From assembly GCA_001430755.1 (NCBI GenBank), contig CP013062.1:1050001-1082000 (forward strand): a DNA stretch of 32,000 nt, read 5' to 3'. Each line of letters starts with the position of its first letter. Within the stretch, counting starts at the first letter, position 1. The translations under genes and the position numbers were made by a program. The notes beneath the pieces were generated by a model. The model searched no databases. It was not told the DNA's origin and worked only from the letters and a program-made list of their open reading frames with translations. This DNA is from Candidatus Peribacter riflensis (GTDB taxonomy: Bacteria > Patescibacteriota > Gracilibacteria > Peribacterales > Peribacteraceae). Of this stretch, positions 2-25,886 are shown piece after piece.

Positions 2-2926
2 TGCGGCGGATGGATGTTCGACGAGCGTGTGGAGGGCAAGATCTCCACGGTCACCGGAGCACCCGGACGCAAGGGCACTGTCTTTGATGGCGGAAAACTG
101 ATTCCCGAAGTGGCAAAAAGCGGCCTCGCGAAGCGCGAAGAGAAGATAGGGGCACTGGAGGACGGCTTTGTCTTCCCTTCGTCGGGCTTGGCAACCGGCT
201 GGTCCACCGTCTGCCACGTGAATGAATGTGGAAACAGCTATCCCTACATCCGCGAGTGCCCGGGAGAGCCTCCCTGCAGAAACCCGGATGAGTGCCGGGA
301 GATGTGCAGCGAACTCAACGCCTGGCAACGCGTTCACCAGAGCTGCACGGCGGAATGGACGGAATATGATTGGGACGGCAATCCGTTTCAGGTATTTGAT
401 TTTCTGGAGGATACCAGCCCCTGCAAGAACGTCGATAACGGTGACTGGTGCCAACCCGGTGACGAGAACTGGGTCGATCCCCGAACCCGCCTGCAGGATG
501 CGCATCCCGATGCGAATGTATGGTGCGATATCGACGAAATGCTCTACTGCTGCTCAAACGCCGTTGTGGCGAACCGTGAGAACGACCCGGAACGCAACTG
601 TCTGAACTGCAACGGGGACGGGCTCGAGGACCGCAATAATCCCGGGGTGGATTTTAATGGAGAAGTCCCGGCCGACCTGGAACAGACTGGATGCCGTAAA
701 GGAAAGAACGCTCCAAATGGACGGGAGTACGTTTCGATATACAGACGGTTTATGGTGAGCTTCACCCGCAATGCCGTGCCCGTCGTTCCGCGGGATGACA
801 CGCAGCGAACAGATGTCCCCGTCGACTGCTACTGCCGCTATGAGGAATTCGACCCCAAGACGCGCAAGACGCTCGCCAATGATCACCGTTGCATCGTCAT
901 GCTCGAAGAGGAGGAGAAACGTTTCAGGGACATGAAAGAAACACAGCATGGAAAAGGCGAGTACGGCCAGAATTCCAATCTGCCGGATCCCACGTACGAA
1001 GAAAACCGGACACGCGATACGCTCAAAGATCTGTGGGTGAATAATTTCAGCGATACGTTCTCACTCTTGAACGGCAACAAAATCAAGGAATCGCCGAAAG
1101 ACAACCTCTTTCCGCTGCTCCAGCTCGATAACACCAATCTTGTACCGACCGCACAACTCGACAAGACCCGCGTCTTCTCCAGTGGAAGCTTGCTACGCGC
1201 CACCGACGACACGGTGAACACCGATCACACGGGCCGCCGCACGATCGTCGAGTGGTGGCAGGAGCAGGAAACGCAGGCTCACAAGCTCTTCACACCGCCA
1301 ATTCTCCGCCTCATCCTCCCCACGCCCGCCTCAGAAGGCCTGAATCTGACCGATCCCCTGCTGACACCAAAGGGAAACAGCCGTCCTCCAGGCTCGCTGC
1401 GTATCAATCAACAAATCATCGACCTGCAGATCCGCGCAGATCCCGAAGATCTGCTCTCTGAAGTGAGCGCCTACCTCGAGAACGCCCTCCTCATCCACGT
1501 GCAGGAGGAACCCGTCACGCTCGTGGTCCCTCTGGCTTCGCCGGTCGAGCTCCGCGCGCTGGCGCAGGGATGGAAACGATGGGGAGAAGAACAGGGGGAA
1601 GGCGAGGCGAAGTCAAAGGCGGAAGGGGCCGCCCAGAAGTTAGAGGCCTATGCCGAGCGCATCGATCAGGTCCGCGCTCTGCGCAGCGAATTAGCACAGT
1701 ACATCGGACGGCTTCTGACGTATCAGGGAACCATGACACGCGCGATCGGCGAATGGCTCGAAGGAAACCTGGGAGCCTGGGACCGGTATGCAACGGCCTG
1801 GCGGGAGCGCCTGAACCTCCAACCACAGTGGAAGGAAATCCAACAGAAGTACCGCGTATTCCATGACCGGACGAATATGCCGTGGTGTCGCAATGACCGC
1901 TATACGACTCCGATCTACTCGTTCCTCGATCCCTGGATGCCCGGTCCCGATGCCCCGCGCGATCTGGCACTCAACATTGATGAGAACCCTGCGAACGATA
2001 CCGACCCGTACAAGCTGCCGCGTCTCGCCATCGATCCGCTTCCGGACCTGGTCTACGACTTTACGGTCTTCCGCGTCTCCACGGGTACGGTCCTCCTGCC
2101 CGTCTTGCATCCACTGCAGGTCCGGCTGCAACAGTCTCTTCTCAATCCGCCCGCGTTTTATAAGGAACTGGGTGCTGTCTCAGAGCAGCTGGACAAATTG
2201 AACGCGCTTCCCGATCTGCCTCCTGTGCCCACGATCTTCCAGGAGGTTCTCGATCGCCTGCTGCCGAATGAAGTGCTCCACACTTCCTCCCCGACCACCA
2301 TTCAACCCACTCTTCCGGAACTGCCGCCCGAAATCCGCGAAGTACTGGAGCAGATCTCCAGAATTCTGACGGGAATGGACCGGACCTACGGCGAATTTTG
2401 GGAGAGCATCGTGGAGTACCCGGAGCGCGATATCCCCGAGAAGAAATGGGATTGTCAGGGACTGGGCGTCATGCCGTGCGTGCACGTTGAAATGGACCTG
2501 CTGGAGCGCTTCACGCGCATCGGCTCGCGGCCTGCGGTGCAGTTGAAAGAGGATTTCGCCTCTCATGGACTGCTGCGCACGGGTGTCATCAATAACAAGG
2601 CAACCGCCGACAGTCTGCCCAGTTCCCGGCTCTCGCCGCCGACAGCTGTGCCTCCCTGCCCCCGTGAGGATTGGGTGTGCCAGGTATTCAACGCAGAGAA
2701 AACCTACGCACGGGAGGGATGGCGTATCGAGGGAGTGAAGGAGGGAACGGGGAAGGAGGATTTGCAAAACCTCCGGGAACGGCTGCGAAAAGAAACCATC
2801 CCCAACAGCTCGAGCTCTTTCCCCTACATTGTGTATCCCGAAGGGCTGTTGCCCTCTTTCAATGTTCCAGGCCCGTTCATCCTGCCTGCGTACCCCTCAG
2901 GACGAAGTGGCTCCGCATCCTCATGA
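2..2926 (+). CDS. Hypothetical large cysteine-rich protein, 5' end cut by the window edge; gene 1 of a 5-gene coupled operon
   Basis: Frame 2 is open from nt 2, with no stop before the first ATG at 14, so the gene probably begins upstream of the window. It spans more than 970 codons. Its TGA stop (2924-2926) overlaps the next ATG (2923-2925) as ATGA. The N-terminal third is Cys-dense (CHVNECGNSYPYIRECPGEPPCRNPDECREMC...). No family recognised by eye. Confidence 0.75.
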   Translation, partial: CGGWMFDERVEGKISTVTGAPGRKGTVFDGGKLIPEVAKSGLAKREEKIGALEDGFVFPSSGLATGWSTVCHVNECGNSYPYIRECPGEPPCRNPDECREMCSELNAWQRVHQSCTAEWTEYDWDGNPFQVFDFLEDTSPCKNVDNGDWCQPGDENWVDPRTRLQDAHPDANVWCDIDEMLYCCSNAVVANRENDPERNCLNCNGDGLEDRNNPGVDFNGEVPADLEQTGCRKGKNAPNGREYVSIYRRFMVSFTRNAVPVVPRDDTQRTDVPVDCYCRYEEFDPKTRKTLANDHRCIVMLEEEEKRFRDMKETQHGKGEYGQNSNLPDPTYEENRTRDTLKDLWVNNFSDTFSLLNGNKIKESPKDNLFPLLQLDNTNLVPTAQLDKTRVFSSGSLLRATDDTVNTDHTGRRTIVEWWQEQETQAHKLFTPPILRLILPTPASEGLNLTDPLLTPKGNSRPPGSLRINQQIIDLQIRADPEDLLSEVSAYLENALLIHVQEEPVTLVVPLASPVELRALAQGWKRWGEEQGEGEAKSKAEGAAQKLEAYAERIDQVRALRSELAQYIGRLLTYQGTMTRAIGEWLEGNLGAWDRYATAWRERLNLQPQWKEIQQKYRVFHDRTNMPWCRNDRYTTPIYSFLDPWMPGPDAPRDLALNIDENPANDTDPYKLPRLAIDPLPDLVYDFTVFRVSTGTVLLPVLHPLQVRLQQSLLNPPAFYKELGAVSEQLDKLNALPDLPPVPTIFQEVLDRLLPNEVLHTSSPTTIQPTLPELPPEIREVLEQISRILTGMDRTYGEFWESIVEYPERDIPEKKWDCQGLGVMPCVHVEMDLLERFTRIGSRPAVQLKEDFASHGLLRTGVINNKATADSLPSSRLSPPTAVPPCPREDWVCQVFNAEKTYAREGWRIEGVKEGTGKEDLQNLRERLRKETIPNSSSSFPYIVYPEGLLPSFNVPGPFILPAYPSGRSGSASS

Positions 2927-3759
2927 TCCGATTCCGCTCACTGCTCTGGCCCTGCCTGCTCCTGCTGCTCGCGCTCCCCGCGCCGGGCTGGTCGCAGCAG
3001 ACAGCCCAGGCAGATATCGCCAGCTGTCGCAGCCTGGTGGAGTCCGCGCTCTCCAAGGAGCAACGCCTGTACCGCAGCGTGCTCTTCGGCCACACGAAAG
3101 CGGAAGATGCTCCTCCAAGCGAAGTACGGTTCGATACCGAAGGCCGCCCCTGGATCAAAACCGAACGCAATACTTGGCGCTCTGTGTCGCCACGATTCGT
3201 CGATGTGATCTGGCGCGACCCGGTCATGGACGAGAACGATGAACTCCAGCAACGAAAAGGCATCTACGAAACGAGACGCGTGGCCACTTCTGACCTGGTC
3301 CCCCACCTCACGCAGGCGTACCGCGCTCTCAAGTGTCGCAGCACCATCATCTGCAAAACGGTGGAACTTTCGATTGGGCAGGAATCAGCAGACCCGCAGG
3401 AAGTGACCGTCACCGTTCCGGGCTGCATTGAAGAACGCCGACAGACATTTTCGGGGTGCCATCTGGCGGCTGCCGAAGGCAACAAAATCGAAGAGGCCGA
3501 CGTGCTCACGCACTGCCGGCTCGTGCGCGATGACCTCGTGACACGCGAGAGGGATCTGCTCAAGCTCACGACCGAGTACGACGCCGCCTATCGCTCGCTC
3601 CTCCAGCTCTCCGGGCAGACCGACGCCTTTTTGCAGGAATTCCGCTGGCCCATGATCAATTCGCTCCGCAAGGCCGCAGAACTCGTCGGGACGCTGCACC
3701 GCATTCCCTGCTTCATTGCGAGTTGCGACGAAGGCCCTCTCCCGTCTTCTGAAGAATGA
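2923..3759 (+). CDS. Hypothetical secreted protein (278 aa); gene 2 of operon
   Basis: I chose ATG 2923 over the track start at 2671. It yields a classic signal peptide (MIRFRSLLWPCLLLLLALPAPGWS/QQ) and an ATGA overlap with the gene 1 stop, whereas the 2671 start would overlap gene 1 by about 250 nt. The stop at 3757-3759 overlaps the next ATG at 3756 (ATGA). Confidence 0.7.
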   Translation: MIRFRSLLWPCLLLLLALPAPGWSQQTAQADIASCRSLVESALSKEQRLYRSVLFGHTKAEDAPPSEVRFDTEGRPWIKTERNTWRSVSPRFVDVIWRDPVMDENDELQQRKGIYETRRVATSDLVPHLTQAYRALKCRSTIICKTVELSIGQESADPQEVTVTVPGCIEERRQTFSGCHLAAAEGNKIEEADVLTHCRLVRDDLVTRERDLLKLTTEYDAAYRSLLQLSGQTDAFLQEFRWPMINSLRKAAELVGTLHRIPCFIASCDEGPLPSSEE

Positions 3760-4544
3760 ATCTGCGTCCTGTGCACACCATCGGCCTCACGGCCATCCTC
3801 CTTCTGGTGGCGGGTACGGCAGCAGTGATTTCGCAACCCGAAACCCTCACGGGGGTGAGTGTCGCATTCATCCAGAAACAGGAGCAGGAGAACGCAGTAC
3901 TCACGCCCTGCTCCCGTTTCACCGAAGGGTACATGCAGCTGCCATTCGCAACGGGGAACTTCGCTCAGTGGCCGACGCTCTACCATGAGAAGGCAGGCGC
4001 GGTCGTGGAGGAACACCTACAGTCCTTTCTGAAGCCGGCCAAGTGCGATGCCACGACAGGAGCGGAGGCTTTGCCGGCTGGCCCCAAGCTGCAGGAGCTG
4101 GCCCGTATGCTCCCAAGCTGGAAGAACGCAACAGTGAGCCAGACGGAGGTGGGGGCGGTCCTGTTGGAATACCTGCGTGCCTATGAGTGCGCCCTGCAGG
4201 AACGTCTGTACTTCCTCCACCCCGATGCCCTGGAAGAACTGAAAGGCAGACTGCAGAACGCGGGAGCCGAATCGGAGGTAATCGACATTTCAGATCTCAT
4301 CGCAGAGGTGTCGGAAGAGGATAAGACCATCACCCGCGAGTACGCCACCGCCCGTCCGACGCTCCACCGCGCGCTCACGATTGTCGGAGGCCTCGGCCGG
4401 CTCCTGCCACTCCATGGGGAATTGCAGTGCATCGAGCGCGCTTCGCTCGACATTCGCAACGCTCTCGCTCTCGGAGCGGAAGCCAGCGCCTGTTTACCGC
4501 GCATCTGGAATGCCAAGGATCCCCTCCGCGATCTGCAACCGTGA
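3756..4544 (+). CDS. Hypothetical secreted or signal-anchored protein (262 aa); gene 3 of operon
   Basis: The N-terminus MNLRPVHTIGLTAILLLVAGTAAVIS is hydrophobic and looks like a signal sequence. There is an ATGA overlap upstream and a GTGA overlap downstream (GTG 4541-4543 / TGA 4542-4544). Confidence 0.7.
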   Translation: MNLRPVHTIGLTAILLLVAGTAAVISQPETLTGVSVAFIQKQEQENAVLTPCSRFTEGYMQLPFATGNFAQWPTLYHEKAGAVVEEHLQSFLKPAKCDATTGAEALPAGPKLQELARMLPSWKNATVSQTEVGAVLLEYLRAYECALQERLYFLHPDALEELKGRLQNAGAESEVIDISDLIAEVSEEDKTITREYATARPTLHRALTIVGGLGRLLPLHGELQCIERASLDIRNALALGAEASACLPRIWNAKDPLRDLQP

Positions 4545-7003
4545 AGCGTTACGCTGCTGCCATCGGCTTCCTCCTGCTCCTGCTCACGACAGGCAGTGCC
4601 AGTGCGCAGCAGGCGGACGGAGATGTGCGACTCTACGAGAGAATGCATGCCATTACACTGCAAGAGATCGCCCTGGAAAACGTGGATGACGTGATCGTCA
4701 CCTATGTGGTGCAATTAGCGGAGCAGGAAAAGATGATTCCCGCAGGAAAAACCTCATCCGATCTGCGCGAGGCGGTGAAAGCGGCGCTCGAGACGCGCCT
4801 GGACGATTTCTGCGAGATGTACAACGCCACATTCGACGGGTGCCCCGAGGTGTACCAGACATTCCGCGACTGGGCGCGTGATATGATCGAAACGCGCACA
4901 CTCTCGACGGATCTGCTCCATATCGCCACAGGGTATGAAACGGGTGTGAGTGGCGCTATGGGCGAAATCTTCACTATTGCCGAGCGCACCCTCACCATCC
5001 GTCACCTCTGGCGCAGTCAGGATGACGCACTCCTCACTCCCGAAGTGTTCCCCTTGGTTCGGGCGGTCCCACGGCCGGACAGCGTCACGGACGGCATGTT
5101 CGATGATCTGGGATCCGAGCTAAAAATGCACATGCCCGGAGCCGTCTGGCGTTATCGCTATGGCCTCGCTGCGTTCGGCGATTACTGCACTGAAACCACA
5201 GATGCCTCCGAGCTCTTCGAGGCAGTCAGAGAGCGCTCATGTGCCGTGGAAGAAAAGCTCCGCGCCCTGCGCGACGCCTTACCAGCGAACGCCCTGGACT
5301 ACACTCCTCCACTGCAGAAAGGGGAAATCGTCATTTTCCCGCTGCGCAGGCTCGACGATCCCGCGCATGTCGTCGTCTGGATGATGGCAGAGAACATCAA
5401 CGGCAGAGTGGAGCGTGAGGCGGGCGTGGGATGGGATCTCGCGCTCGATCCCGTACCCATCGGCTTCGTGGGCGGAGACTCCTGTGACGCCGGAACCCTC
5501 TCTGAACCCTACTGCACAGTCGTGAACCGCTTCAGGATCCGGCCGGGAGGCCGGTACGAAGATCCGCCCAAGGAGCCCGGCGAGAACGGCGGCATCTGCC
5601 ACCTGCCCTTCGCCCGCGACGGCTATCTTTGCCGCCCGCTCCGGCATGACCGGTGCAACGTCGAGATCGAATACAAAGACCCCCGCTCCATCGTGCTGAC
5701 AGAGTGCAAGCCCTCGCAGTCGAAGCAGCCCATCTCACTGACGGCATCCGGCCCCGATATCTGCCGCACGGGATGGTGGCGGATTCCTGCCAGCTCTTCC
5801 TCCTCTTCCCAGGGTTCCGGAGAAACGGAAAAGAGTTCTTGCAGTTTGTGCATCCCGAAAATGCAATGTGAGAGTGATTGCGAGGGCCATTCGGCCCTGA
5901 CGAATCCGAAAGATGAAGATGGAAAGATCCGCATTTGCATTTCAACGTCCGCGCCCCGCAGCCTGTTGCTCCATAATGTCATCCATGAGCTCGTCCATGC
6001 GCAGCAGCTCTGCAATCTCCCCCCGGGAACAAAGATTTTCGATACGGCGGAGCGCTGCTGCGCCAATGAATACGAAGCCTATCGCGCATCCTGTCGCATC
6101 CTTGCCGAAGACGGTGTGCTGGAGGAGGCGGGCGCCTCCATCGAGGAGTGCGCGGGGGGCCTGGCGAACGTAAGTTGCGAACGGTACGGAGACCGGATCT
6201 GTTCAGAGATCAACACGGTGAACCTGAAACAGAAGATCGATGAAGTGCTGGAACGCCGCGCCAGTGAATCACAGGAAAATTTCCCCACCTGCGAAGAGCT
6301 CATTGGCGAAGGTACGGGATCCGGGAAATTTGATACCCGTCCGCTCTCGATGGTCGAAGCCATGAATATGGCCTGCTCCCCCGGGTGCAAGACGCAGTAC
6401 GAGAACACCATCGGCAACAATCTCTGCTACGTCGGACAGTGCATCGAGCAGTCGGTTGAGCAATCCCGCCTCATCCCCGGACGTATGCCCCTGAATGTGG
6501 CAGACGAAGCCTACCCGTGGGATGCCTGTGCTGCCGAAGACCCCCGGGCAGGAGGAATGATGGCCCTGCCGGCCCTCTCTCCCCCGCTGCCGCCCCCATA
6601 CAATCCGCGGCTCCTCGTAGAATCACTCGATCGCGCGCTGTGCCAGATCAACGGGCTTCCGGCGGCCACGCCGCCGATCTTCTGCCAGTTCGACTACGAG
6701 CGCCGCCTGAGCATTCCCACCGACAACTACGTCACGACCACGCTCAGCTTCACCGACCAGATCGCAGAAAATCTGAATCCGACTGCCTCTCTCCAGCGCA
6801 TGACGCAGAGTGTTTCCACGCGCATCGGAACCGCACTCCTCTCGCGCTACCTCACCTGGGCAGGCCGCTCACTCGCCGAAACATTACGGGCGGGCAACCT
6901 GCTCATGCAGAACATGGAACGAACGGTCTTCCCACGCACTACCTGCCCCCGGAACGCAACCGAAGAGCCCGACTTCTGCCGATCTTCCGCAGCCTCTTAC
7001 TAA
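4541..7003 (+). CDS. Hypothetical secreted cysteine-rich protein with an HExxH metalloprotease-like motif (820 aa); gene 4 of operon
   Basis: A GTG 4541 start gives (M)KRYAAAIGFLLLLLTTGSASA/QQ, a signal peptide with an ASA cleavage motif, and a 4-nt overlap with gene 3. The track start ATG 4427 would overlap gene 3 by 118 nt and has no signal peptide. I count more than 30 Cys by hand. HELVH is encoded at 5984-5998, with NEYEAY about 24 aa downstream. Confidence 0.7.
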   Translation: MKRYAAAIGFLLLLLTTGSASAQQADGDVRLYERMHAITLQEIALENVDDVIVTYVVQLAEQEKMIPAGKTSSDLREAVKAALETRLDDFCEMYNATFDGCPEVYQTFRDWARDMIETRTLSTDLLHIATGYETGVSGAMGEIFTIAERTLTIRHLWRSQDDALLTPEVFPLVRAVPRPDSVTDGMFDDLGSELKMHMPGAVWRYRYGLAAFGDYCTETTDASELFEAVRERSCAVEEKLRALRDALPANALDYTPPLQKGEIVIFPLRRLDDPAHVVVWMMAENINGRVEREAGVGWDLALDPVPIGFVGGDSCDAGTLSEPYCTVVNRFRIRPGGRYEDPPKEPGENGGICHLPFARDGYLCRPLRHDRCNVEIEYKDPRSIVLTECKPSQSKQPISLTASGPDICRTGWWRIPASSSSSSQGSGETEKSSCSLCIPKMQCESDCEGHSALTNPKDEDGKIRICISTSAPRSLLLHNVIHELVHAQQLCNLPPGTKIFDTAERCCANEYEAYRASCRILAEDGVLEEAGASIEECAGGLANVSCERYGDRICSEINTVNLKQKIDEVLERRASESQENFPTCEELIGEGTGSGKFDTRPLSMVEAMNMACSPGCKTQYENTIGNNLCYVGQCIEQSVEQSRLIPGRMPLNVADEAYPWDACAAEDPRAGGMMALPALSPPLPPPYNPRLLVESLDRALCQINGLPAATPPIFCQFDYERRLSIPTDNYVTTTLSFTDQIAENLNPTASLQRMTQSVSTRIGTALLSRYLTWAGRSLAETLRAGNLLMQNMERTVFPRTTCPRNATEEPDFCRSSAASY

Positions 7004-8566
7004 ATGAGACGCCTTGCCACCTTCACCTTCGGCCTTCTGCTCTTCGCCTCCGCCCTGCCAACGGAAGCGGCAGGAGACCAGTACGCCGATCTGGAGCCCG
7101 TGTCGCCGTACGTCCGACGCGTGGTGCGGCGGGTGCAGGCGGGCATGAGCGCCCCTGCGGGTGCAGGCACCACCTCCGATACCGTCCTGCGCCTGTTCTG
7201 GCTCGATAAGATCACCGGCACGATCCTGGGGCTCATCGACACCGATTTGCGCATCGTGGAACACGAGCAGGACCTGAGGGAAAATACCCCCTGTTTACGA
7301 CTCGATACACTCATCCTGGAGGGATGGATGGAGCGGGCGAGACAGAAGAAAAACGATGCCATTCAATCAGGACAGGTGGGCGAAGCGGCGCGGCTGATTT
7401 CGATGCAACGCTACCTGAACAATCGGTACAGGGCGCTGCTGCAAGGTGTGCGCGACCCAACGTACGTCGATGGCGAGGAAGGGAACTTCTATTCCTTCGA
7501 CCCTCCTCCGTATTGGTGCTGCCCCGCAGAGGCGGAGAACGACCAACAGGTGGCATCCTGCAAACAGGTGACCGACGAAGACGGAACGGAGTGCCGGAGA
7601 GAACGCGGTTCTCTCTTCAAGAGACACTACGCATGCGTGCAGGCCGGCTGCAGCGACGGAGGGGGCGGCGGAGGAGAAGATGAAGGGGAGCCCTGTCCGT
7701 TCAGCTCCGATTACCTCCCTCCAACGGGGGTGGGCTACGGGTGCGATCTCTCGGTACTCGAGAGTCGCGGCAGCGCTGTGGAGGGTATCGGCAAGGAAAT
7801 CGAAGGCTTGCAGACACTGATGCGTGATCGCGACACCTTCATCAGCTCCATGGAGGGGGCAAAAGAGATGGTGCTCCGGCTGGAGGCACGCCTGGGAGGG
7901 GGGGTGTCGGATCTCTCGAACTTCGGGGCAGGGGCGAGCAACCGGCGCACGCATCAGGTATTCAATGGCTGCCTCACAGAGAACCAGGAACTGCCGGCGG
8001 GCATCGCCTTCTGGGAGCGCCGCGGCCCCTTCTCCTTCGCCTCCAACGAGAAGGTACTCATGCCCAAGCTGGCGGAGCTCTGGTACAGCTGGGGCCTGCA
8101 ACGGCGTCCGCCCACGTACCTGCGCAACGCCAATGAGATTCCCGAAGGCACCCCCGAACGGGAGCAGGCCGAAGCAATCGAAGGCGGCGGGCTCATCTGG
8201 CTTCTCGGTGCACGCAATGACGTACAGGAGTACCTGCGCGTGGTCAGCCTGCACCAGGCCGAAGTGGAGAGTACGCAGATCGCCAAGACAACCGACGCGT
8301 CACAACGCACCCTGCAGAATCTGTCTGCGCTCCGCACGGAAGTACAGAAGATGGCTCTGACTGTGAAAAGTTCTGACCGTGGATTGAGGAAATTCGTGAA
8401 GAATTACGCAGCGTTCCTGCGGACCTCGTGCATTTTTCGTCCCTGTACCAAGCAATTGGAGCGCGTCCTGAAGATTATCTTCGAGGATGAGTGCTTCCCC
8501 TACATCAACGGAGCCGCCCTCGATGAAAATGTTGCCGAGCGGTGCAAAAATGCCGCAGGACTCTGA
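7004..8566 (+). CDS. Hypothetical secreted cysteine-rich protein (520 aa); gene 5 of operon
   Basis: The ATG directly follows the gene 4 TAA (TAAATG). The signal peptide is MRRLATFTFGLLLFASALPTEA/AG. A Cys-rich patch (YWCCPAEAENDQQVASCKQVTDEDGTECRRERGSLFKRHYACVQAGC) is followed by a GGGGGGEDEGE run. Confidence 0.7.
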   Translation: MRRLATFTFGLLLFASALPTEAAGDQYADLEPVSPYVRRVVRRVQAGMSAPAGAGTTSDTVLRLFWLDKITGTILGLIDTDLRIVEHEQDLRENTPCLRLDTLILEGWMERARQKKNDAIQSGQVGEAARLISMQRYLNNRYRALLQGVRDPTYVDGEEGNFYSFDPPPYWCCPAEAENDQQVASCKQVTDEDGTECRRERGSLFKRHYACVQAGCSDGGGGGGEDEGEPCPFSSDYLPPTGVGYGCDLSVLESRGSAVEGIGKEIEGLQTLMRDRDTFISSMEGAKEMVLRLEARLGGGVSDLSNFGAGASNRRTHQVFNGCLTENQELPAGIAFWERRGPFSFASNEKVLMPKLAELWYSWGLQRRPPTYLRNANEIPEGTPEREQAEAIEGGGLIWLLGARNDVQEYLRVVSLHQAEVESTQIAKTTDASQRTLQNLSALRTEVQKMALTVKSSDRGLRKFVKNYAAFLRTSCIFRPCTKQLERVLKIIFEDECFPYINGAALDENVAERCKNAAGL

Positions 8567-8626: not shown

Positions 8627-8701
8627 ATGAACACCTCTGATTTCGTCCACCCCGCACCAGTCGCTTCGCTCCGGCGCAGGGCATGCCTCCACCTCACATG
8701 A
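8627..8701 (+). other. 24-codon upstream ORF whose stop overlaps the dnaE ATG; possible degenerate duplicate of the dnaE 5' end
   Basis: ATG 8627 to TGA 8699-8701 encodes MNTSDFVHPAPVASLRRRACLHLT. The stop overlaps ATG 8698 (ATGA) of dnaE, which begins MKATDFVHLHCHS. The nucleotide sequences atgaacacctctgatttcgtccacc and atgaaagcgaccgactttgtccacc are clearly related. Confidence 0.35.
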
Positions 8702-11700
8702 AAGCGACCGACTTTGTCCACCTGCACTGCCATTCGACCTACTCCCTCCTCGAGGCACTCCCGAGCCCGGAGGAAATTGTGGAACGTGCAAAAGAGCTGG
8801 GTCAAACCGCCGTCGGCATCGCCGACAAAGGGTACGTCTACGGGCTGGTGGAGTTCTATCAGGCAGCAAAAAAGGGTGGGCTGAAGCCCATTCTGGGTCT
8901 CGAGACGTACGTGGCGGCCCGCACGCGCTTCGACCAGGAAAGCGGAACGGATACGAAGCGCTACCCACTCGTGCTCCTCGCGGAAAATGAAGAGGGGTAC
9001 TCAAACCTTCTCGCGCTCGCCACGCAGGCCGCGCTCGAGGGCATGTACTACAAGCCGCGTGTGGATGCCGAACTCCTGAGTAAATATGGCAAAGGTCTCA
9101 TTGCGCTCACCGGGCCGATCGGAGGGGCGATCCCGCAGGCCGCGCTGGTGGAGGACGGCGAGCGCATTCAGGAACTCACCGAACAGTACCGTTCGTACTT
9201 CGGCGAAAAGAACCTCTACTTCGAGTTGATGGAACTGACAGGGGTGACCGGGCAGGCCGAGGTGAATCAGCAGCTCATCAGTTGGGGAAAGAAGCTCAAT
9301 GTCCCTCTGGTGGCGACGTGCTCCAGCCACTACTGCCGCCCGCAGGATTCCGAGGCCCACGATGTGCTCCTGTGCATTCAGAAGAACGCAAACGTCGCCG
9401 ATCCAACGCGCTTTTCGATGCGTGACAGTGATTTTTCCATGCGCCCGTTTACGGAGCTGGAGTGTACATTCGCCCACGTACCCGAAGCGCTGCAGAATAC
9501 GCGCGTTATCGCCGACCGCTGCTCCGTCACTCTGGAGTTGGGAAAGTACCGCATTCCCCGTTACCCGGTGCCAAAGGACACCACCGAGGAATCCGAGCTC
9601 TCCCGTCTCGCGGGAGAAGGTTTCGCACAGAGGTACCCCAATGCCACGCAGGAACAAAAGGATCGCCTGAAGCATGAGCTTTCCGTCATCAACAGCATGG
9701 GATTCGCCGGATACTTCCTCATCGTGGCCGATTTCATCAATGAGGCGAAGCGGAGGGGGATTGCGGTGGGACCCGGGCGCGGATCGGCTGCCGGGTCCAT
9801 CGTGTCTTACAGCTTGAACATCACGACGCTTGATCCCCTGGAACACGGGCTCCTCTTCGAGCGATTTCTCAACCCCGAGCGCATCTCGATGCCGGATATC
9901 GATACGGATTTTGCCGATACGCGGAGAGATGAAGTGCTGGAATATGTCCGCGACAAGTACGGCAATGACCGGGTCGTGCAAATCTGCACGTTCGGAACGC
10001 TGGCGGCCCGGGCGGCCGTGAAAGACGTGGGCCGCGCCTACGGCGTGCCGTTTCTCGAAATGAATGCGCTGGCGAAGCTCATCCCCGAACGTCCCGGCAC
10101 GACACTCAAGGATGCCATGGAAACGACGGAATTGAAGGCGGCCTACGACAGCAACGAGACGTACCGGAAAATCATCGACACCGCGTTCAAGCTGGAGGGA
10201 AAAGCGCGCCATGTTTCGGTGCACGCCTGCGGCGTGATCATCACGCCGGAACCCACAGTGCATTTCTCCGCGCTCCAACGCGCTCCCAAAGATGAAAATA
10301 TCATCATTACACAGTACGAGGCGAAGCCACTGGAGGCGCTGGGGCTTCTGAAAATGGACTTCCTGGGACTCACGAACCTCACGGTCATCCAAACCACGCT
10401 GGAAATCATTCAGCGTCTGTACGGCACACAGTTGGATATGGCCAACCTGCCCATGAATGACAAGGCGACGTACGAGCTCCTCCAGCGCGGAGATACGACG
10501 GGCGTGTTTCAGCTGGAATCCGCCGGGATGCGGCGGTACTTAAAGCAGCTCATCCCTACGACATTCAACGACATCACCGCAATGGCGGCGCTCTTCCGCC
10601 CGGGGCCCATGGAATGGATTCCGAGTTTTATCAAGCGCAAACACGGGAAAGAACAGGTGGAATACCTCCACAAGGATGTGGAACCCATCTTCCGCGAGAC
10701 CTACGGCATCGGCGTTTACCAGGAGCAAATCCTGCAGCTCGCGCGTGTGTTCGCCGGTTATTCATTGGGAGAAGCGGATCTTCTGCGGCGTGCCATCGGA
10801 AAGAAAATCAAGAAAGAGCTCGACGCGCAGCGAGACAAGTTCATCGCGGGCGCGGCGAAGAAAGGACATGGGCAGGCGCTGGCAGAGAAGATCTTTGACG
10901 ATGTCATCCTGCCATTCGCCGGATACGGATTCCCCAAAGCGCATGCTGCCGGCTACGCGCGCATCGCGTTTGAAACCGCATACTTGAAGGCGCACTTCCC
11001 GACGGAATTCATGGCCGCGCTCCTCTCGAGTGACGCGCAGCGGACAGACCGCGTAATGATCGAAATTGAAGAATGCCGCCAGATGAGCATTCAGGTGCTC
11101 CCGCCAGATATCAATGAATCGCTCCGCCACTTCACCGCCCTCCCGCCGGAAGGAGCCACACTGGCACACGGGACGGCGCAGAAGGGATCAATCCGCTTCG
11201 GATTGAGCGCCATCAAAGGCATTGGCGACAGCTCGGTGCAGCAGCTCATCGCCGTTCGCGAAGCAGGCGGGAAATTCAAGTCCATCGAGGATTTCGCGCG
11301 GCGCGTTCCCTCGAAAGTGCTCAACAAAAAACTGCTCGAGGCGCTCGTTAAATCCGGCGCGCTCGACTCGCTCGGCGAGCGCAGAGCACTGGTGGAGCAC
11401 TATGAGCTCATCATCGATTACGCTAAATCCAGCGGGAATGTTTCCGCCGCCCAGAGTGACTTATTCGCCTCTGCCGGCACGAAGCTCGACGATGCCACCA
11501 TCGAGTTCCCGCACACTACCGAGGCCACGTCCCTGCAAAAATTACAGTGGGAAAAAGAAACGCTCGGCATGTACGTCAGCAGCCATCCCCTTGCGGGTCT
11601 CAAGAAATACATCGCCAAAAAAGCCCAGCTCATTGCAGATCTCACCGCCAAAGACGCTGGAAAGAAAATCAAGCTGGCGGGACTGGTCGAGAGCATCAAG

Positions 11701-12495
11701 CGCATCACGACGAAGAAGGGCGAGACGATGGCTGTCATCCTTCTGGAGGATCCGACAGGCAAGATTGAGGCGACGCTCTTTCCAAGGGTCTATGGCGAGT
11801 TCGCCAATCTGCTGGAGCTGCCAGATTCGGTGCTCGTTGTAGGAGGGACAATCGATATGCGAGCGGGACAATTGCAGATGCGGGCGGATGCGCTCAAGCG
11901 CGCGGTCCTCTCGACCATGATCACCCATGCCAAAGAGGAAGGGTTCTTCGATGAAGAGGAAGCCAAGCACGGCCTTTCGATCTCGCGCAAGCGACTGGAA
12001 GAGACTGAGCAGGTGGAGTTGGTGGATGAGGAGGGGAATGTCATCGCCGGTGAAACAGTGACGCTGGGGAACAGTCAGAACGGGCAGGACGAATTCCTCG
12101 GCCCACTGGGGCAATGGCTTCTGCAGGGCATGCCGACGACGGAGGTGCTCACGGCACTGGGCTTCTCGGCCCAGGAATCTTCTGAATCGCCTGCACAGGC
12201 AGACTCATCAAAGCCTGAGAAGAAAACCCTGAAGAAAAAGGAGGGCGATGCGCCAACGGAGCCCCGGACCTACTCCACCGAAATCTCCATTCACACGATC
12301 GCGCTCCCGGAGCGCGCGCCAAAAAAACTCCTGCTGGATCTCAAGCACGTGCTCGAAACCTTCCCCGGAAAAGAAAAGGTGCAATTGAAGATCGGCGAGC
12401 AGCTCATTCCCCTCCCGCTCACCATCAACATGTCCACCATCCTCGAAAAGAAGATCGAGGAAGTGCTCAGTGCGTATGCCTCTCCCGCCGCCTGA
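8698..12495 (+). CDS. dnaE: DNA polymerase III alpha subunit
   Basis: It has the PHP-domain N-terminus DFVHLHCHSTYSLLEA and polymerase core motifs (GPGRGSAAGS, MPDIDTDF), and is about 1265 aa long. The start is ambiguous between ATG 8698 (ATGA-coupled to the uORF) and the in-frame ATG 8683 used by the ORF track. The C-terminal ~200 aa include a Ser/Lys/Glu low-complexity linker. Confidence 0.95.
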   Translation: MKATDFVHLHCHSTYSLLEALPSPEEIVERAKELGQTAVGIADKGYVYGLVEFYQAAKKGGLKPILGLETYVAARTRFDQESGTDTKRYPLVLLAENEEGYSNLLALATQAALEGMYYKPRVDAELLSKYGKGLIALTGPIGGAIPQAALVEDGERIQELTEQYRSYFGEKNLYFELMELTGVTGQAEVNQQLISWGKKLNVPLVATCSSHYCRPQDSEAHDVLLCIQKNANVADPTRFSMRDSDFSMRPFTELECTFAHVPEALQNTRVIADRCSVTLELGKYRIPRYPVPKDTTEESELSRLAGEGFAQRYPNATQEQKDRLKHELSVINSMGFAGYFLIVADFINEAKRRGIAVGPGRGSAAGSIVSYSLNITTLDPLEHGLLFERFLNPERISMPDIDTDFADTRRDEVLEYVRDKYGNDRVVQICTFGTLAARAAVKDVGRAYGVPFLEMNALAKLIPERPGTTLKDAMETTELKAAYDSNETYRKIIDTAFKLEGKARHVSVHACGVIITPEPTVHFSALQRAPKDENIIITQYEAKPLEALGLLKMDFLGLTNLTVIQTTLEIIQRLYGTQLDMANLPMNDKATYELLQRGDTTGVFQLESAGMRRYLKQLIPTTFNDITAMAALFRPGPMEWIPSFIKRKHGKEQVEYLHKDVEPIFRETYGIGVYQEQILQLARVFAGYSLGEADLLRRAIGKKIKKELDAQRDKFIAGAAKKGHGQALAEKIFDDVILPFAGYGFPKAHAAGYARIAFETAYLKAHFPTEFMAALLSSDAQRTDRVMIEIEECRQMSIQVLPPDINESLRHFTALPPEGATLAHGTAQKGSIRFGLSAIKGIGDSSVQQLIAVREAGGKFKSIEDFARRVPSKVLNKKLLEALVKSGALDSLGERRALVEHYELIIDYAKSSGNVSAAQSDLFASAGTKLDDATIEFPHTTEATSLQKLQWEKETLGMYVSSHPLAGLKKYIAKKAQLIADLTAKDAGKKIKLAGLVESIKRITTKKGETMAVILLEDPTGKIEATLFPRVYGEFANLLELPDSVLVVGGTIDMRAGQLQMRADALKRAVLSTMITHAKEEGFFDEEEAKHGLSISRKRLEETEQVELVDEEGNVIAGETVTLGNSQNGQDEFLGPLGQWLLQGMPTTEVLTALGFSAQESSESPAQADSSKPEKKTLKKKEGDAPTEPRTYSTEISIHTIALPERAPKKLLLDLKHVLETFPGKEKVQLKIGEQLIPLPLTINMSTILEKKIEEVLSAYASPAA

Positions 12496-13966: not shown

Positions 13967-15727
13967 ATGTTACGAACCCACACCTGCGGCGAGCTGACGG
14001 CCAAACATGCCGATCAGCAAACGACTCTGTGCGGCTGGGTACACCGGCGCCGCGACCACGGAGGGCTCATCTTCGTGGACCTGCGGGACCGCTACGGCTT
14101 CACACAGATCGTGTTCGATCCGAAGGATAAGACGACCTTCGCCGCCGCGGAGAAGATTCGCCCCGAGTGGGTACTGAAAGTAACCGGAGTCGTTCGCAAG
14201 CGCGTGGAAGGTGCGGAGCGCAAAGAGAATCCCACGGGCGAAATCGAAGTGCTCGCAGAAAGTATTGAGGTGTTGAGCGAGTCGAAGACGCCGCCGTTCG
14301 AAATCGACCAGGAGAAGGAGGTGAACGAAGAACTTCGCCTGCAGTACCGGTTCCTGGACCTGCGCCGCCCCTCGCTTCAGAAAATGATGCAGCAAAGGGA
14401 TGCGTTCATCGGGCATATCCGCGGCTACATGCATGGCAAGGGATTCACAGAAGTGCAGACGCCTATTCTCGCCAACTCCTCCCCCGAGGGGGCACGTGAC
14501 TATCTGGTGCCGAGCCGCCTGCACCACGGAATGTTCTACGCACTTCCTCAGGCTCCTCAGCAATTCAAACAGCTCCTGATGGTGGCGGGGCTTGACCGGT
14601 ACTTCCAGATTGCACCCTGTTTCCGGGATGAAGATCCCCGCGCCGACCGTCATCCCGGCGAGTTCTACCAGCTGGATCTTGAAATGAGCTTCGTCACGCA
14701 GGAAGACATCTTCAATGCCGTGGAGCCGCTCATGATCGAACTGACCGAAAAGTTCAGTGACAAAAAAATCGTGCAACGGACCTTCCCCCGCTTCACGTGG
14801 AAAGAAATTTTTGACCGCTATGGCTCAGATAAACCGGATCTGAGATTCGGCCTGGAAATAAACGACATCACCGCTCTCTGCAAGGGCTGCGGATTCTCCA
14901 TTTTCGCGGATGCGGTCACGAAGGGTGGAGTGGTGAAAGCGCTGAGGGTCGCCGGAGGAGCGAAATTCTCCCGCAAGGAGATCGATGATCTCACCGATGT
15001 CGCACGAACGTACGGCGCCAAAGGGCTTGCGTGGATGAAACGGACAAAGGGAAAGCTCGAAGGGGTGCCCGTCACGAAATTGGGTGAGGATTTCTCGGAA
15101 AAAATCGCAGAACAGATAGCACTTGGAGACGGAGACATCGCCTTCTTCACGGCAGACAAGTGGCTGATCGCCTGCCGCTCTCTCGGCCAGGTACGCGGAG
15201 AGATCGGCAAGAAACTGAAACTGGCAGACTCCAAAACGGCCGCATGGGCCTGGGTGAAGGATTTTCCGATGTATGAGTGGAATGAGCAGGAGAAAAAGAT
15301 CGACTTCATGCATAACCCTTTCTCCATGCCCCAGGGCGGAATGGAGGCGCTGGAGAAGGACCCTCTCACCATCCTCGCCTACCAGTACGATCTCATTTGT
15401 AACGGCTTTGAAATCAGCTCAGGAGCCATTCGTAATCACCGACCGGATATCATGTACAAGGCTTTCGAGATTGCCGGATATTCAAAGGAAGACGTCGACA
15501 AGAAATTTGGCGGAATGATCCGCGCATTTCAGTTTGGCGCGCCGCCCCACGGCGGCATTGCCCCGGGCATCGACCGCCTCATGATGGTGCTGTGGGAATG
15601 CCCCTCCATTCGCGATATCTATGCCTTCCCCAAGAACGGCAAGGCTCAGGATGTCATGATGGGGGCACCCTCCGTGGTTTCCGACGCTCAGCTCAAAGAG
15701 CTCAGCATCCGCGTAGTGGAAGAATAG
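13967..15727 (+). CDS. aspS: Aspartate--tRNA ligase, bacterial type with GAD insertion domain
   Basis: MLRTHTCGELTAKHADQQTTLCGWVHRRRDHGGLIFVDLRDRYG is the OB-fold N-terminus. Class II motifs are present (FYALPQAPQQFKQLLM, FRDEDPRADRHPGEFYQLD, GGIAPGIDRLMM). The product is 586 aa. Confidence 0.95.
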   Translation: MLRTHTCGELTAKHADQQTTLCGWVHRRRDHGGLIFVDLRDRYGFTQIVFDPKDKTTFAAAEKIRPEWVLKVTGVVRKRVEGAERKENPTGEIEVLAESIEVLSESKTPPFEIDQEKEVNEELRLQYRFLDLRRPSLQKMMQQRDAFIGHIRGYMHGKGFTEVQTPILANSSPEGARDYLVPSRLHHGMFYALPQAPQQFKQLLMVAGLDRYFQIAPCFRDEDPRADRHPGEFYQLDLEMSFVTQEDIFNAVEPLMIELTEKFSDKKIVQRTFPRFTWKEIFDRYGSDKPDLRFGLEINDITALCKGCGFSIFADAVTKGGVVKALRVAGGAKFSRKEIDDLTDVARTYGAKGLAWMKRTKGKLEGVPVTKLGEDFSEKIAEQIALGDGDIAFFTADKWLIACRSLGQVRGEIGKKLKLADSKTAAWAWVKDFPMYEWNEQEKKIDFMHNPFSMPQGGMEALEKDPLTILAYQYDLICNGFEISSGAIRNHRPDIMYKAFEIAGYSKEDVDKKFGGMIRAFQFGAPPHGGIAPGIDRLMMVLWECPSIRDIYAFPKNGKAQDVMMGAPSVVSDAQLKELSIRVVEE

Positions 15728-15789: not shown

Positions 15790-16776
15790 ATGGCCGAACC
15801 TGTTGATCCCAAGAAGGCCGACCTGCAGAAGCAGCTGGAACGCGCGCAGGAGCTCAGGCGCGCACAGCTGGAAAAGGAGAAGGAACGCCGCGGGGAACGC
15901 CGGCAGGAAGCCGCAGAGCGCGGCGAGCGCCAGCACGCCTTCACAGAGGCGGAACTTTTGGAGCAGGAACGCAAGAAGCGGGAAGTGAAGGAGTGGCAGG
16001 AGGCGGAGGTGGAACGGAAAAAGGCTGTAATTGAAATGAAAAAGAAAAAAGAGGAAGAGAAGAAATTTTGGGAGGACCAGGACGCCAAGCACGCGGAGAA
16101 ACTCAAGAAGCGCGCCGCCTACATGAAGCAGATGCACGAGCAGAACGAACGCCAGATGATGCTGGAACGCCGCAAGAACGCCGCGAAGAAATTGACGGAT
16201 GACACGCGTGAGAAAGCGGAATGGGATGCTTTACGTACACGACAGCAGAGCGAATTGTGGGCGAAGCAGGAGCGCGGAAAGACGGAGATAGGATCCAGAA
16301 AGAAACGCGCGGATGCCGACCAGGAGGAGCAACGCCTGAAAGAAACCGCAGAGGAGGAGGCGCGGCAGAAGAAGACGAAAATCGAAACCCAGAACCGTGA
16401 AGCGATGGCGCGCGTGGAAAATGATATCCGGCGGCGCCGGATGGTGGCCGCGGAACTGCCGCTCCCGCTCCGCGAGGCGGAACAGCGAAAAATAGACGTG
16501 GACGAGCGGCGGGAGCGCGAAAAAATCGAACATGAAAAACGCATGGCGCAAACGGCCATCGATATGGAGGCGAACAAGCGAAAACTGGAGATTGAGCTGC
16601 AGGCACGTCGCAAGCGCGAAGACGCAGCTATCCAGGAGCGTGAAGGCCTGGCGGCAATCGAATCAGAAGAGAAGAGGCGCGGCGATCAGGCAGGCAAAGA
16701 CGCCGTTCATAAAGAGGAAGAGGCTGCCCGCCGCGCCGATCACATCGCGCGGGGAGAGGAAGAAATCCCCACATGA
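15790..16776 (+). CDS. Hypothetical highly charged Glu/Arg/Lys-rich protein (328 aa), predicted long helical/coiled region
   Basis: It is the longest ORF in the region and sits directly downstream of a consensus -10. The composition is dominated by E, R, K, A and Q throughout (EKEKERRGERRQEAAERGERQ...). There is no TM segment or signal peptide. The opposite-strand ORFs here look like shadows. Confidence 0.65.
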   Translation: MAEPVDPKKADLQKQLERAQELRRAQLEKEKERRGERRQEAAERGERQHAFTEAELLEQERKKREVKEWQEAEVERKKAVIEMKKKKEEEKKFWEDQDAKHAEKLKKRAAYMKQMHEQNERQMMLERRKNAAKKLTDDTREKAEWDALRTRQQSELWAKQERGKTEIGSRKKRADADQEEQRLKETAEEEARQKKTKIETQNREAMARVENDIRRRRMVAAELPLPLREAEQRKIDVDERREREKIEHEKRMAQTAIDMEANKRKLEIELQARRKREDAAIQEREGLAAIESEEKRRGDQAGKDAVHKEEEAARRADHIARGEEEIPT

Positions 16777-16957: not shown

Positions 16958-17046
16958 GCCGAGGTGGCGGAATTGGTAGACGCGCCAGCCTTAGGAGCTG
17001 GTCCCGCGCAAGCGGGATAGAGGTTCGAGCCCTCTCCTCGGCACCA
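16958..17046 (+). tRNA. tRNA-Leu, anticodon UAG, type II with long variable arm and genomically encoded CCA
   Basis: The acceptor stem is GCCGAGG/CCTCGGC. The D-arm GTGGCGGAATTGGTAGACGCG is typical of tRNA-Leu. The anticodon stem is CCAGC/GCTGG with loop CTTAGGA. The variable arm is cccgc-gcaa-gcggg, and the T-arm is AGAGG TTCGAGC CCTCT. Discriminator A and CCA follow. Confidence 0.95.
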
Positions 17047-25494: not shown

Positions 25495-25677
25495 AAGGTG
25501 GTTCCCAATAGTAAATAATTAAAAGAAGTATTCTTATAATTCGTCGTAATCATAGACCCTCTACTAAAGTTCATCTTTATCATTGTAGTCTGTGGAAAGT
25601 GAGAGCAATAGTTTCATTTTTTCTTTTTCTTAAGGCCATCTCTATTTTTTGGGCCTCTCTGTGGGTTGTGGAGGAGG

Positions 25678-25686
25678 TGTGGATAA
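25678..25686 (-). promoter_or_regulatory. Perfect DnaA box TTATCCACA
   Basis: The + strand reads TGTGGATAA. The box is embedded in the 14-mer GGTGTGGATAACTT (25676-25689), which recurs at 25823-25836. Confidence 0.7.
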
Positions 25687-25824
25687 CTTGTGGAGAAGTG
25701 GAAGAGTAGATGAGTGGGAAGCCAAACGCTATGTTTATGGCTTTATGGAGCGGAAATACCAAAGTTTACGTGCAGAACACCTGCCTACCTAAGAGGAACC
25801 CATCCACAGGGCTTTCCACAGGGG

Positions 25825-25833
25825 TGTGGATAA
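25825..25833 (-). promoter_or_regulatory. Perfect DnaA box TTATCCACA
   Basis: The + strand reads TGTGGATAA. This is the second copy of the identical 14-mer, 147 bp from the first. Confidence 0.7.
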
Positions 25834-25886
25834 CTTTTGTGTGCAAGATGGCGGGCTTTCCCTCCAGAATTTCTTAAAAAAAGCTC

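Follow-up and report, generated by a model that had tools for sequence, protein, structure and literature searches.

The operon and its surroundings

A 32,000-nucleotide stretch of the Candidatus Peribacter riflensis chromosome (contig CP013062.1, positions 1,050,001 to 1,082,000 of the forward strand), referred to here as the window, opens with five tightly coupled genes whose products appear to be exported, contain many conserved cysteines, and could be assigned to no recognisable family at curated thresholds. All five lie on the + strand. Gene 1 (2-2926) is represented in the window by its 3′ 975 codons, its 5′ end lying beyond the window edge; gene 2 (2923-3759) encodes a protein of 278 residues, gene 3 (3756-4544) one of 262 residues, gene 4 (4541-7003) one of 820 residues from a GTG start that overlaps the stop codon of gene 3, and gene 5 (7004-8566) one of 520 residues. 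All of these frames are open, as a first-pass annotation of the window had described them, and the joins between them are, in order, ATGA, ATGA, GTGA, and TAAATG. The product of gene 4 matches, with 100% identity, PeribacterA2_1005 of Candidatus Peribacter riflensis, an uncultured groundwater bacterium in the candidate phyla radiation (CPR, or Patescibacteria) for which complete genomes have been described by Anantharaman et al. 2016 (PMC4736985).

The missing 5′ end of gene 1, whose recovery had been proposed, was obtained from an identical metagenome contig (L001, 5297-8386). On this contig the gene starts 164 nt upstream of the window and is preceded by a divergent ssb, and its full product of 1029 residues begins with the signal peptide MHARAPYVVPVVAGLLMAASLHVLSASA, followed by IEVDE. 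With the start of gene 1 recovered and ssb lying ahead of it, the operon consists of exactly five genes spanning 8,730 bp. Its GC content of 57-62% is near that of its flanks, and gene 5 is followed downstream by dnaE (8683-12495) and then by tsaC, nrdR, and aspS.

No Shine-Dalgarno-like motif (GGAG, GAGG, AGGA, or AAGG) is present in the 20 nt that precede genes 2-5 and dnaE (2903-2922, 3736-3755, 4521-4540, 6984-7003, and 8663-8682), so that reinitiation at the overlaps would be a reasonable route for the translation of genes 2-5. A promoter scan yielded two promoter-like sites of weak consensus upstream of gene 1 and a terminator scan no + strand terminator after gene 5; neither result is used in the argument.

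Conservation, synteny, and selection

Orthologous loci were collected by a degenerate-pattern scan in which each GTDB species was represented by one genome. This gave 39 loci, to which three distant metagenome contigs, picked by gene 4 homologs of 27-34% identity, were added. Wherever enough contig is available, all five genes are present and their order is unchanged in the 39 GTDB loci and in the three metagenome loci, always between a divergent ssb and dnaE. Whether homologs keep a conserved order across genomes was the check suggested for the claim that these genes form one unit, and the outcome favours that claim, with homologs co-occurring in fixed order, junctions that are mostly overlaps of -4 or -1 across loci, and an order that is kept at sequence identities of 24-40%, the most distant loci being at 24-30%. 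The five proteins are co-inherited and co-regulated.

The source names of the 39 loci are those of Peribacteria, Peribacteraceae, Peregrinibacteria, or unclassified Patescibacteria metagenome-assembled genomes. For gene 1, 33 homologs were found, and every source name given for them is Peribacter, Peribacteraceae, Peribacteria, or Peregrinibacteria. A HMMER profile of gene 4 matched 309 clusters at E ≤ 1e-3 in a set of 1.84 billion representative proteins, and among the 150 matches listed all are full-length or fragmentary orthologs. All record titles and source names obtained fall under Peribacter, Peribacteraceae, Peribacteria, Peregrinibacteria, or an unclassified Patescibacteria or bacterium label. 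The best explanation of these sequence searches would be an operon restricted to the class Peribacteria and inherited vertically. The operon is single-copy as judged from genes 1 and 4, the families for which this was searched, and the exact gene 4 protein is found on 24 contigs from several samples, so that no strain variation is seen for gene 4. In one distant lineage (L005), a gene with two ABC_tran ATPase domains (14112-15698 of that locus) overlaps the stop codon of gene 5 by 4 nt; in other lineages, gene 5 and dnaE are separated by insertions that are small and unrelated.

Among distant orthologs, identity in the five proteins is 29-38%, compared with 70% for dnaE, 64% for ssb, 60% for gltX, and 56% for murB, so that their divergence is about twice as fast as that of the genes around them. 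When close relatives are compared, the ratio of nonsynonymous to synonymous substitution rates (dN/dS) is 0.05-0.26, which indicates clear purifying selection and lies in the range of murB and tsaC. Because the operon is single-copy (genes 1 and 4), strictly syntenic, and held at such dN/dS values, it does not follow the pattern of a fast-turnover adhesin, and a reading of the products as variable adhesins appears weakened.

Covariation in evolutionary rate was addressed by a mirror-tree test: what cubic polynomials in the dnaE and ssb distances could account for was removed from the pairwise distances by regression, and correlations were computed between the residuals. Stated without P-values because pairwise distances are non-independent, and with a control set that holds no unrelated exported gene, the partial r is 0.48-0.73 (mean 0.65) within the five genes, has a mean of 0.13 between the five genes and murB, tsaC, nrdR, and an unknown 154-residue neighbour (hyp154), and has a mean of 0.02 among these four control genes. 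Such covariation is as would be expected of interacting subunits; rate shifts common to exported proteins could also produce it.

Export, membrane attachment, and cysteines

Export signals were judged heuristically from the N termini, from the presence of a hydrophobic core and a cleavage site. Read in this way, genes 1, 2, 4, and 5 encode classical type I signal peptides of n/h/c organisation, with a positively charged n-region, a hydrophobic h-region, and small residues at -3 and -1 in AxA-like sites, the apparent cleavage falling between SASA and I, GWS and Q, ASA and Q, and TEA and A, respectively. An N-terminal hydrophobic core is found in 24/31, 37/38, 35/37, 27/32, and 33/42 of the orthologs of genes 1 to 5, and the orthologs that do not show it look like mis-called starts. 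No further transmembrane (TM) segment is present in any of the five proteins. The conserved hydrophobic N termini thus agree with the proposal that all five products are exported. The more specific claim of a Sec-type signal peptide at each visible N terminus holds for genes 2, 4, and 5, to which the recovered gene 1 can be added, but appears not to hold for gene 3, whose N terminus is hydrophobic but looks more like an uncleaved anchor.

The N terminus of gene 3 (3756-3840) takes two forms, carrying a lipobox in lineages that branch deeply and a cysteine-free, TM-like helix in the clade of P. riflensis. In P. riflensis itself and relatives close to it, a very hydrophobic helix of 18-20 residues is followed by polar or basic, K/N-rich residues, with no obvious AxA or other cleavage site behind it. 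The signal-anchor or TM helix predicted for the copy in the window occupies codons 5-28 (3768-3839, + strand) and has a 19-residue Kyte-Doolittle mean of 2.14, the corresponding values in close relatives being 2.4-3.0. In about 12 of 37 orthologs, from the deep-branching L030-L044 group, a lipobox (L-[AT]-[GA]-C) stands right behind the hydrophobic core, with LAGC, LTAC, LTGC, or LSAC at positions 16-41 (for example, in LALAGC, LALTAC, or LLTGC). In the gene 3 product of the window, the first cysteine comes no earlier than residue 52 and an L-[ASTV]-[GAS]-C motif is missing, so lipoprotein status applies to part of the gene 3 family only. As both types of anchor would hold gene 3 on the membrane, its product is read as a tether, and likely as the membrane tether of an assembly formed by the five proteins.

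Other means of surface attachment were also considered. Sortase anchoring was ruled out, since neither a C-terminal LPxTG motif nor a C-terminal hydrophobic segment was found in any of the five proteins, the sole LPPTG being internal (gene 5, residue 238). For type IV pilins and pseudopilins, the five N termini show no class III signal peptide (a glycine followed by F/M-xxx-E), and no pilin family of Pfam or NCBIfam was matched.

Cysteine accounts for 2.3, 3.2, 1.9, 4.0, and 2.7% of the residues of genes 1 to 5, with 17, 8, 5, 25, and 8 cysteine columns, respectively, conserved at ≥80%. Cysteines are the best-conserved residues, and in all five families they account for a large fraction of the columns that are invariant. 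The cysteine richness on which the first-pass annotation had laid weight is evident against the other 14 genes of the window (mean 0.83%), but the argument is weaker when the genome itself is the reference, as P. riflensis has an unusually high genome-wide mean of 1.67% and invests heavily in cysteine-rich exported proteins (PMC4736985). The enrichment is therefore modest, and in gene 3 marginal. One disulfide-formation protein has been reported in the genome (PMC4736985), and the conserved cysteines of the five proteins probably form structural disulfides of the kind found in exported proteins. Their number is odd in genes 1, 3, and 4 and even in genes 2 and 5; the odd counts could reflect disulfides between subunits, an unpaired thiol, or a site for a metal. 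Elsewhere in the window, the product of 28117-29487 (- strand), which has a signal-peptide-like N terminus and a weak fn3 match, contains no cysteine at all, so that the exported proteins of P. riflensis are not uniformly cysteine-rich.

The operon shares its genome, its apparent export, and its cysteine richness with the large cysteine-rich extracellular proteins of P. riflensis, including a 14-gene cluster, that have been proposed to function in attachment and have been called a source of strain variation (PMC4736985). The five genes are not among the 20 high-cysteine proteins of Table S4 of that study. Those proteins contain 2.4-11.4% cysteine (mostly 5-11%), compared with 1.9-4.0% in the operon, and most of them exceed 1,000 residues and carry weak pappalysin or FG-GAP annotations (PMC4736985). 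Unlike these strain-variable proteins, gene 4 is invariant across the contigs read, and the operon is conserved class-wide.

Searches for known families

The view that the five products belong to no recognisable family has stood up to searches of Pfam, NCBIfam, PHROGs, and PADLOC at curated thresholds and of the PDB, the exception being a sub-threshold zincin signal in gene 4. Profile searches with the five products matched no characterised system. Sequence and profile searches of the PDB with the five proteins and with the isolated zincin domain gave nothing at E < 0.06, gene 4 and its domain giving no match, and per-member Pfam scans of genes 1, 2, 3, and 5 returned scattered chance matches only. 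Structural comparison of AlphaFold2 (AF2) models by Foldseek, carried out for genes 1 and 4, likewise gave no match at E < 0.1. No description of the operon was found in the literature that could be searched. By exclusion, with two of the five products modelled, the operon is rated as new in kind and appears to lie outside every known system tested.

A phage, defence, or plasmid origin was ruled out by these searches: PHROGs gave no match at E ≤ 0.1 for the five proteins, PADLOC gave a single chance-level match of gene 3 to a type I methyltransferase model (MTase_I, E 0.01, 12 bits), and gene 4 had no tblastn match in 50,697 phage and 72,556 plasmid records.

Genes 2 and 5 had been linked by a C-x4-C pair near the C terminus of each, taken as a weak hint of shared ancestry. 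The pairs are real and conserved (C263/C268, invariant, in gene 2; C476/C481 in gene 5, which also has a conserved core, CPFxSDYLPPxxxGYGCD), but shared ancestry finds no support, with an hhalign probability of 2%. Across all ten pairs and the self-comparisons of the five families, hhalign returned signal-peptide matches only, the best of them, gene 2 against gene 3, at 16%, and paralogy among the five genes was ruled out on this basis. The five families being unrelated, the C-x4-C pairs are convergent or trivial.

A zincin-like domain in gene 4

The single product with a clue to its biochemistry is that of gene 4, which consists of a signal peptide, a helical N-domain, a cysteine-rich linker, a zincin-like domain (residues 438-580; 5852-6280, + strand), and a C-terminal region that includes a helix of 65 residues. 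Its AF2 model (m1fb9539fb523) has a predicted local distance difference test (pLDDT) score of 65 and a predicted template modelling (pTM) score of 0.40, with a pLDDT of ~85 over residues 440-580, where three beta strands, a helix with HELVHAQQxC, and a helix with CCAxExEAY are predicted. The HExxH motif noted in the first reading of the sequence is found as HELVH at residues 482-486 (5984-5998, + strand), a putative zinc-binding and catalytic motif that is conserved across orthologs and lies on a predicted helix (473-491), as in the zincins of clan MA. A putative third ligand, E510 (6068-6070, + strand), lies on a second predicted helix (503-523). Conservation among orthologs is 28/32 for H482, 29/32 for E483, and 30/32 for both H486 and E510. 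In the model, the three strands, the HExxH helix, and the E510 helix correspond to the minimal zincin layout.

Similarity to named families is detectable at low levels only. In a per-ortholog Pfam scan of gene 4, sub-threshold matches were obtained to Peptidase_M76 (PF09768; 8/32 orthologs at E < 1, with a best E of 1.9e-4 in one member), to DUF6782 (6/32), and to M91, YgjP-like, and SprT-like families; when the domain alone was scanned, every match to these zincin families spans or includes the HExxH position. None of the zincin families reaches its gathering score, the domain scoring 12-16 bits against cut-offs of 25-27; for PF09768, the P. riflensis domain scores 12.4 bits against 25.2, and no ortholog was seen at threshold. 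In the Foldseek search of the PDB with the gene 4 model, the sole high-probability local match is to SPRTN (6mdw; probability 0.91, 83 columns, E 0.48). Because the HExxH...E residues are conserved, the predicted topology is zincin-like, and the weak matches are all to zincins, we conclude that gene 4 holds a predicted zincin-like domain of an unclassified family, with putative peptidase activity. The predicted short sheet, HExxH helix, and Glu helix are shared with minimal clan MA zincins (M76/Atp23, DUF6782, SprT-like/SPRTN, YgjP-like, and M91). The gene 4 domain is unlike these in being set within a protein of 820 residues of otherwise unmatched sequence and in having lost its motif in part of the family.

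The HExxH...E motif is intact in 36/43 loci and degenerate in the other seven (L004, L020, L021, L029, L040, L041, and L044), which belong to separate clades, have kept the gene and the operon intact, and show the forms KDxxH, HYxxR, HGxxR, QSxxQ, AAxxR, KExxV, and FAxxH. Among them, L021 (HGLVR) is 93% identical to L019, in which the motif (HEMVH) is intact, with a dN/dS of 0.08. Since the motif has been lost in these loci while gene 4 remains under purifying selection, catalysis is not the sole selected function of this protein. Proteolysis, one of the roles first suggested for the operon, is thus weakened as its core role.

The predicted structure of gene 1

The AF2 model of gene 1 (m9d7683c60cae) has a pLDDT of 72 and a pTM of 0.61. 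An N-terminal head (residues 45-355), beta-rich and cysteine-bridged with strands of 10-15 residues, is modelled at a pLDDT of ~90 and is less conserved than any other part of the protein; a helix of 70 residues (574-643), a return helix (646-663), and a C-terminal mixed region follow further along the chain. A helix of 65-70 residues is therefore present in the models of both gene 1 and gene 4. Between the head and the long helix, model residues 361-440 (window ~965-1200) are well conserved, with a mean top-residue frequency of 0.45-0.69 per ten-residue block, and are modelled at a pLDDT of 26-46. This segment may be a partner-binding or partner-bound linker, with the head exposed.

Foldseek searches of the PDB and BFVD with the gene 1 model gave no significant match (none at E < 0.1). 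The top of the lists is occupied by rhabdovirus G and other class III fusion glycoproteins, arrestins, and a pore-forming toxin, all of them insignificant, with vesicular stomatitis virus and Chandipura G from the PDB and about a dozen rhabdovirus G models from BFVD as recurrent top-ranked entries. Like the class III viral fusion glycoproteins, gene 1 is cysteine-rich, and its long beta hairpins are combined with a central helix that is also long. Unlike them, it has no C-terminal membrane anchor, and the matches themselves (E 0.15-3, probability ≤0.10, template modelling score ≤0.12, and root mean square deviation ~20 Å) are such that the apparent likeness to rhabdovirus G is an unexplained lead and not a result.

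A proposed membrane-tethered complex and its alternatives

The explanation preferred here, held at about an even chance, is that the operon specifies a membrane-tethered, probably disulfide-stabilised extracytoplasmic complex of Peribacteria with a role in contact or processing. A multi-subunit assembly, as first proposed, is plausible and is backed by the conserved coupling of the genes and the covariation in their rates. In such a complex, five unrelated Sec-exported products would assemble outside the cytoplasmic membrane into one hetero-oligomer, with the overlapping stop and start codons helping to balance subunit production. Gene 3 would anchor it: in the deep-branching lineages its product would be a lipoprotein, and in P. 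riflensis the helix at its N terminus would serve as the anchor. Gene 1 would supply a large, more variable, beta-rich head that faces outward on a long helical stalk, and gene 4 the zincin-type domain and another long helix, so that the long helices of genes 1 and 4 would together form the stalk; genes 2 and 5 would be cysteine-bridged accessory subunits. As a constitutive structure of the envelope or surface of these presumed symbionts, the whole would most likely serve for contact with or processing of outside material, be this the surface of a partner cell or proteins that the cell itself exports. The zincin domain could then cut or grip its ligand, acting as a protease in the majority of lineages and, in those that have lost the motif, as a module with a binding or structural role.

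A core structure is favoured because the operon is universal, single-copy (genes 1 and 4), and free of observed strain variation, with housekeeping-like dN/dS, and exposure is argued from its faster divergence and from the variable but well-folded head of gene 1. Surface contact or envelope maintenance would accordingly be more likely than proteolysis alone. A precedent by analogy may be offered by translationally coupled operons for surface adhesins in wall-less or reduced bacteria, such as the P1 / P40-P90 operon of Mycoplasma pneumoniae, in which co-transcribed genes encode large exported proteins that form a membrane-anchored surface complex in a host-dependent bacterium of reduced genome. 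The Peribacteria operon would be comparable in its coupled genes for large exported proteins in a reduced, host-dependent bacterium. It differs in showing no sequence or structural similarity to these proteins in any search and in the number and sizes of its subunits, and the mycoplasma adhesins have TM anchors of their own.

Several considerations weigh against this reading of the operon as a tethered complex. Four of the five proteins offer no functional clue, and the role given to them is therefore weakly constrained; the single enzymatic clue is itself not universal, as its motif has been lost in 7/43 loci. The rate covariation could stem from a shared compartment and not from contact. Finally, the structural argument covers two modelled proteins of five, one of them, gene 4, at a pLDDT of 65.

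An alternative that we consider unlikely, but not lightly set aside, is that the operon encodes an envelope-biogenesis or quality-control machine that would mature, fold, or trim the cell's own cysteine-rich exported proteins, wall, or S-layer, with gene 4 acting in the manner of Atp23. Mitochondrial Atp23 (M76) is a cysteine-rich zincin that serves both as a protease and as an assembly chaperone in an oxidising compartment, and the gene 4 domain would be comparable in its cysteine richness and its placement in an extracytoplasmic oxidising compartment. The best weak Pfam match is to Peptidase_M76, but that similarity is sub-threshold and confined to the HExxH helix region. A housekeeping function of this kind accords with the presence of the operon in all loci examined, in synteny amid housekeeping genes (murB, ssb, and dnaE), with the single-copy state of genes 1 and 4, with dN/dS values like those of housekeeping enzymes, and with the identity of the gene 4 protein on its 24 contigs; the genome is also heavy in cysteine-rich exported proteins that might be its clients (PMC4736985). 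Moreover, retention of the protein after loss of its catalytic residues fits a chaperone-like role. Such a machine is harder to reconcile with the divergence of the five proteins, about twice as fast as that of the neighbouring housekeeping genes, and with the large, variable gene 1 head, which is as expected for an exposed domain, and no known partner (Dsb, sortase, or penicillin-binding protein) is linked to the operon.

It is improbable that gene 4 is a secreted metalloprotease, used to acquire nutrients or to attack the envelope of a host, with the other four products serving as its chaperones, inhibitors, substrate-binding factors, or anchors. The retention of HExxH...E in most loci, the zincin-like predicted topology, and the weak zincin matches would all be explained in this way, and an organism unable to make most amino acids (PMC4736985) would have use for such an enzyme. 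The repeated loss of the motif under continued purifying selection, even between L019 and L021, argues against it, as do the small share of the zincin domain in the operon (~140 of ~2,900 encoded residues), the failure to reach the threshold of any known protease family, and the lack of any protease-related feature in gene 1, whose product is the largest and folds best.

That the five are independent exported proteins on a common transcript, with no assembly between them, has a poor chance. The five families are unrelated, and co-transcription of unrelated envelope genes is common. Against this stand the order and overlaps kept class-wide despite identities of 24-40%, the rate covariation specific to the five genes, the conserved segment of gene 1 that does not fold alone in the model, and the presence of a membrane tether on one of the five only.

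A more daring possibility, and a very long shot, is that the operon specifies a host-contact organelle of Peribacteria, spike-like, disulfide-locked, and tethered to the membrane, and made up of five protein families that lack relatives elsewhere. The head and long helix of gene 1 would then be a remote structural analogue of class III viral fusogens, and the complex would engage, pierce, or fuse with a partner membrane. If true, bacteria would here have invented, in an episymbiont, a machine resembling a fusogen. A mobile, phage-derived, or defence cassette, which might account for unrecognised proteins of lineage-restricted distribution, can be dismissed for practical purposes given the fixed chromosomal site between ssb and dnaE in all lineages, a GC content that matches the flanks, and the export of all products.

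Lineage-specific operons of unknown function are common in CPR genomes, and the present one is promising more than it is surprising. The Peribacteria are uncultured and metabolically dependent, and the operon is a well-defined candidate for how they live with other cells: it was found in all members of the class examined, its products appear to be exported, evolve under constraint, and covary in rate, and at the level tested they resemble no described protein. Should the five proteins form a new surface machine, as in the preferred reading of a tethered extracytoplasmic complex, they would represent a lineage-defining envelope structure of the CPR and several new folds.

Other features of the window

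A 390-bp gap of low GC content (25495-25886) lies upstream of dnaN (24313-25494, - strand), in a 1-kb block of 47% GC compared with ~58%. Three DnaA boxes, two perfect and one with a single mismatch, are found in this gap, at 25678-25686, 25689-25697, and 25825-25833; window-wide, there are 8 matches to the DnaA box against 3.0 expected. The gap is probably oriC, although no dnaA gene adjoins it within the window.

The aspS gene (13967-15727) has a bimodal identity to that of P. riflensis among equally close relatives, at 87-93% in L006, L007, L011, and L012 and 60% in L008, L009, and L010, and the genes adjoining it do not show this bimodality in L006-L013. Xenologous replacement of aspS in one sublineage may explain the pattern. 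Behind aspS, an open reading frame on the + strand (15790-16776) encodes a protein of 328 residues that is rich in K, E, and R and free of cysteine, in a block with an AT skew of 0.445. This product has no match in Pfam or NCBIfam, and the only distant ortholog found (L003) is 32% identical. A single tRNA-Leu (16958-17046, + strand) separates this charged open reading frame from a saccharopine dehydrogenase-like gene.

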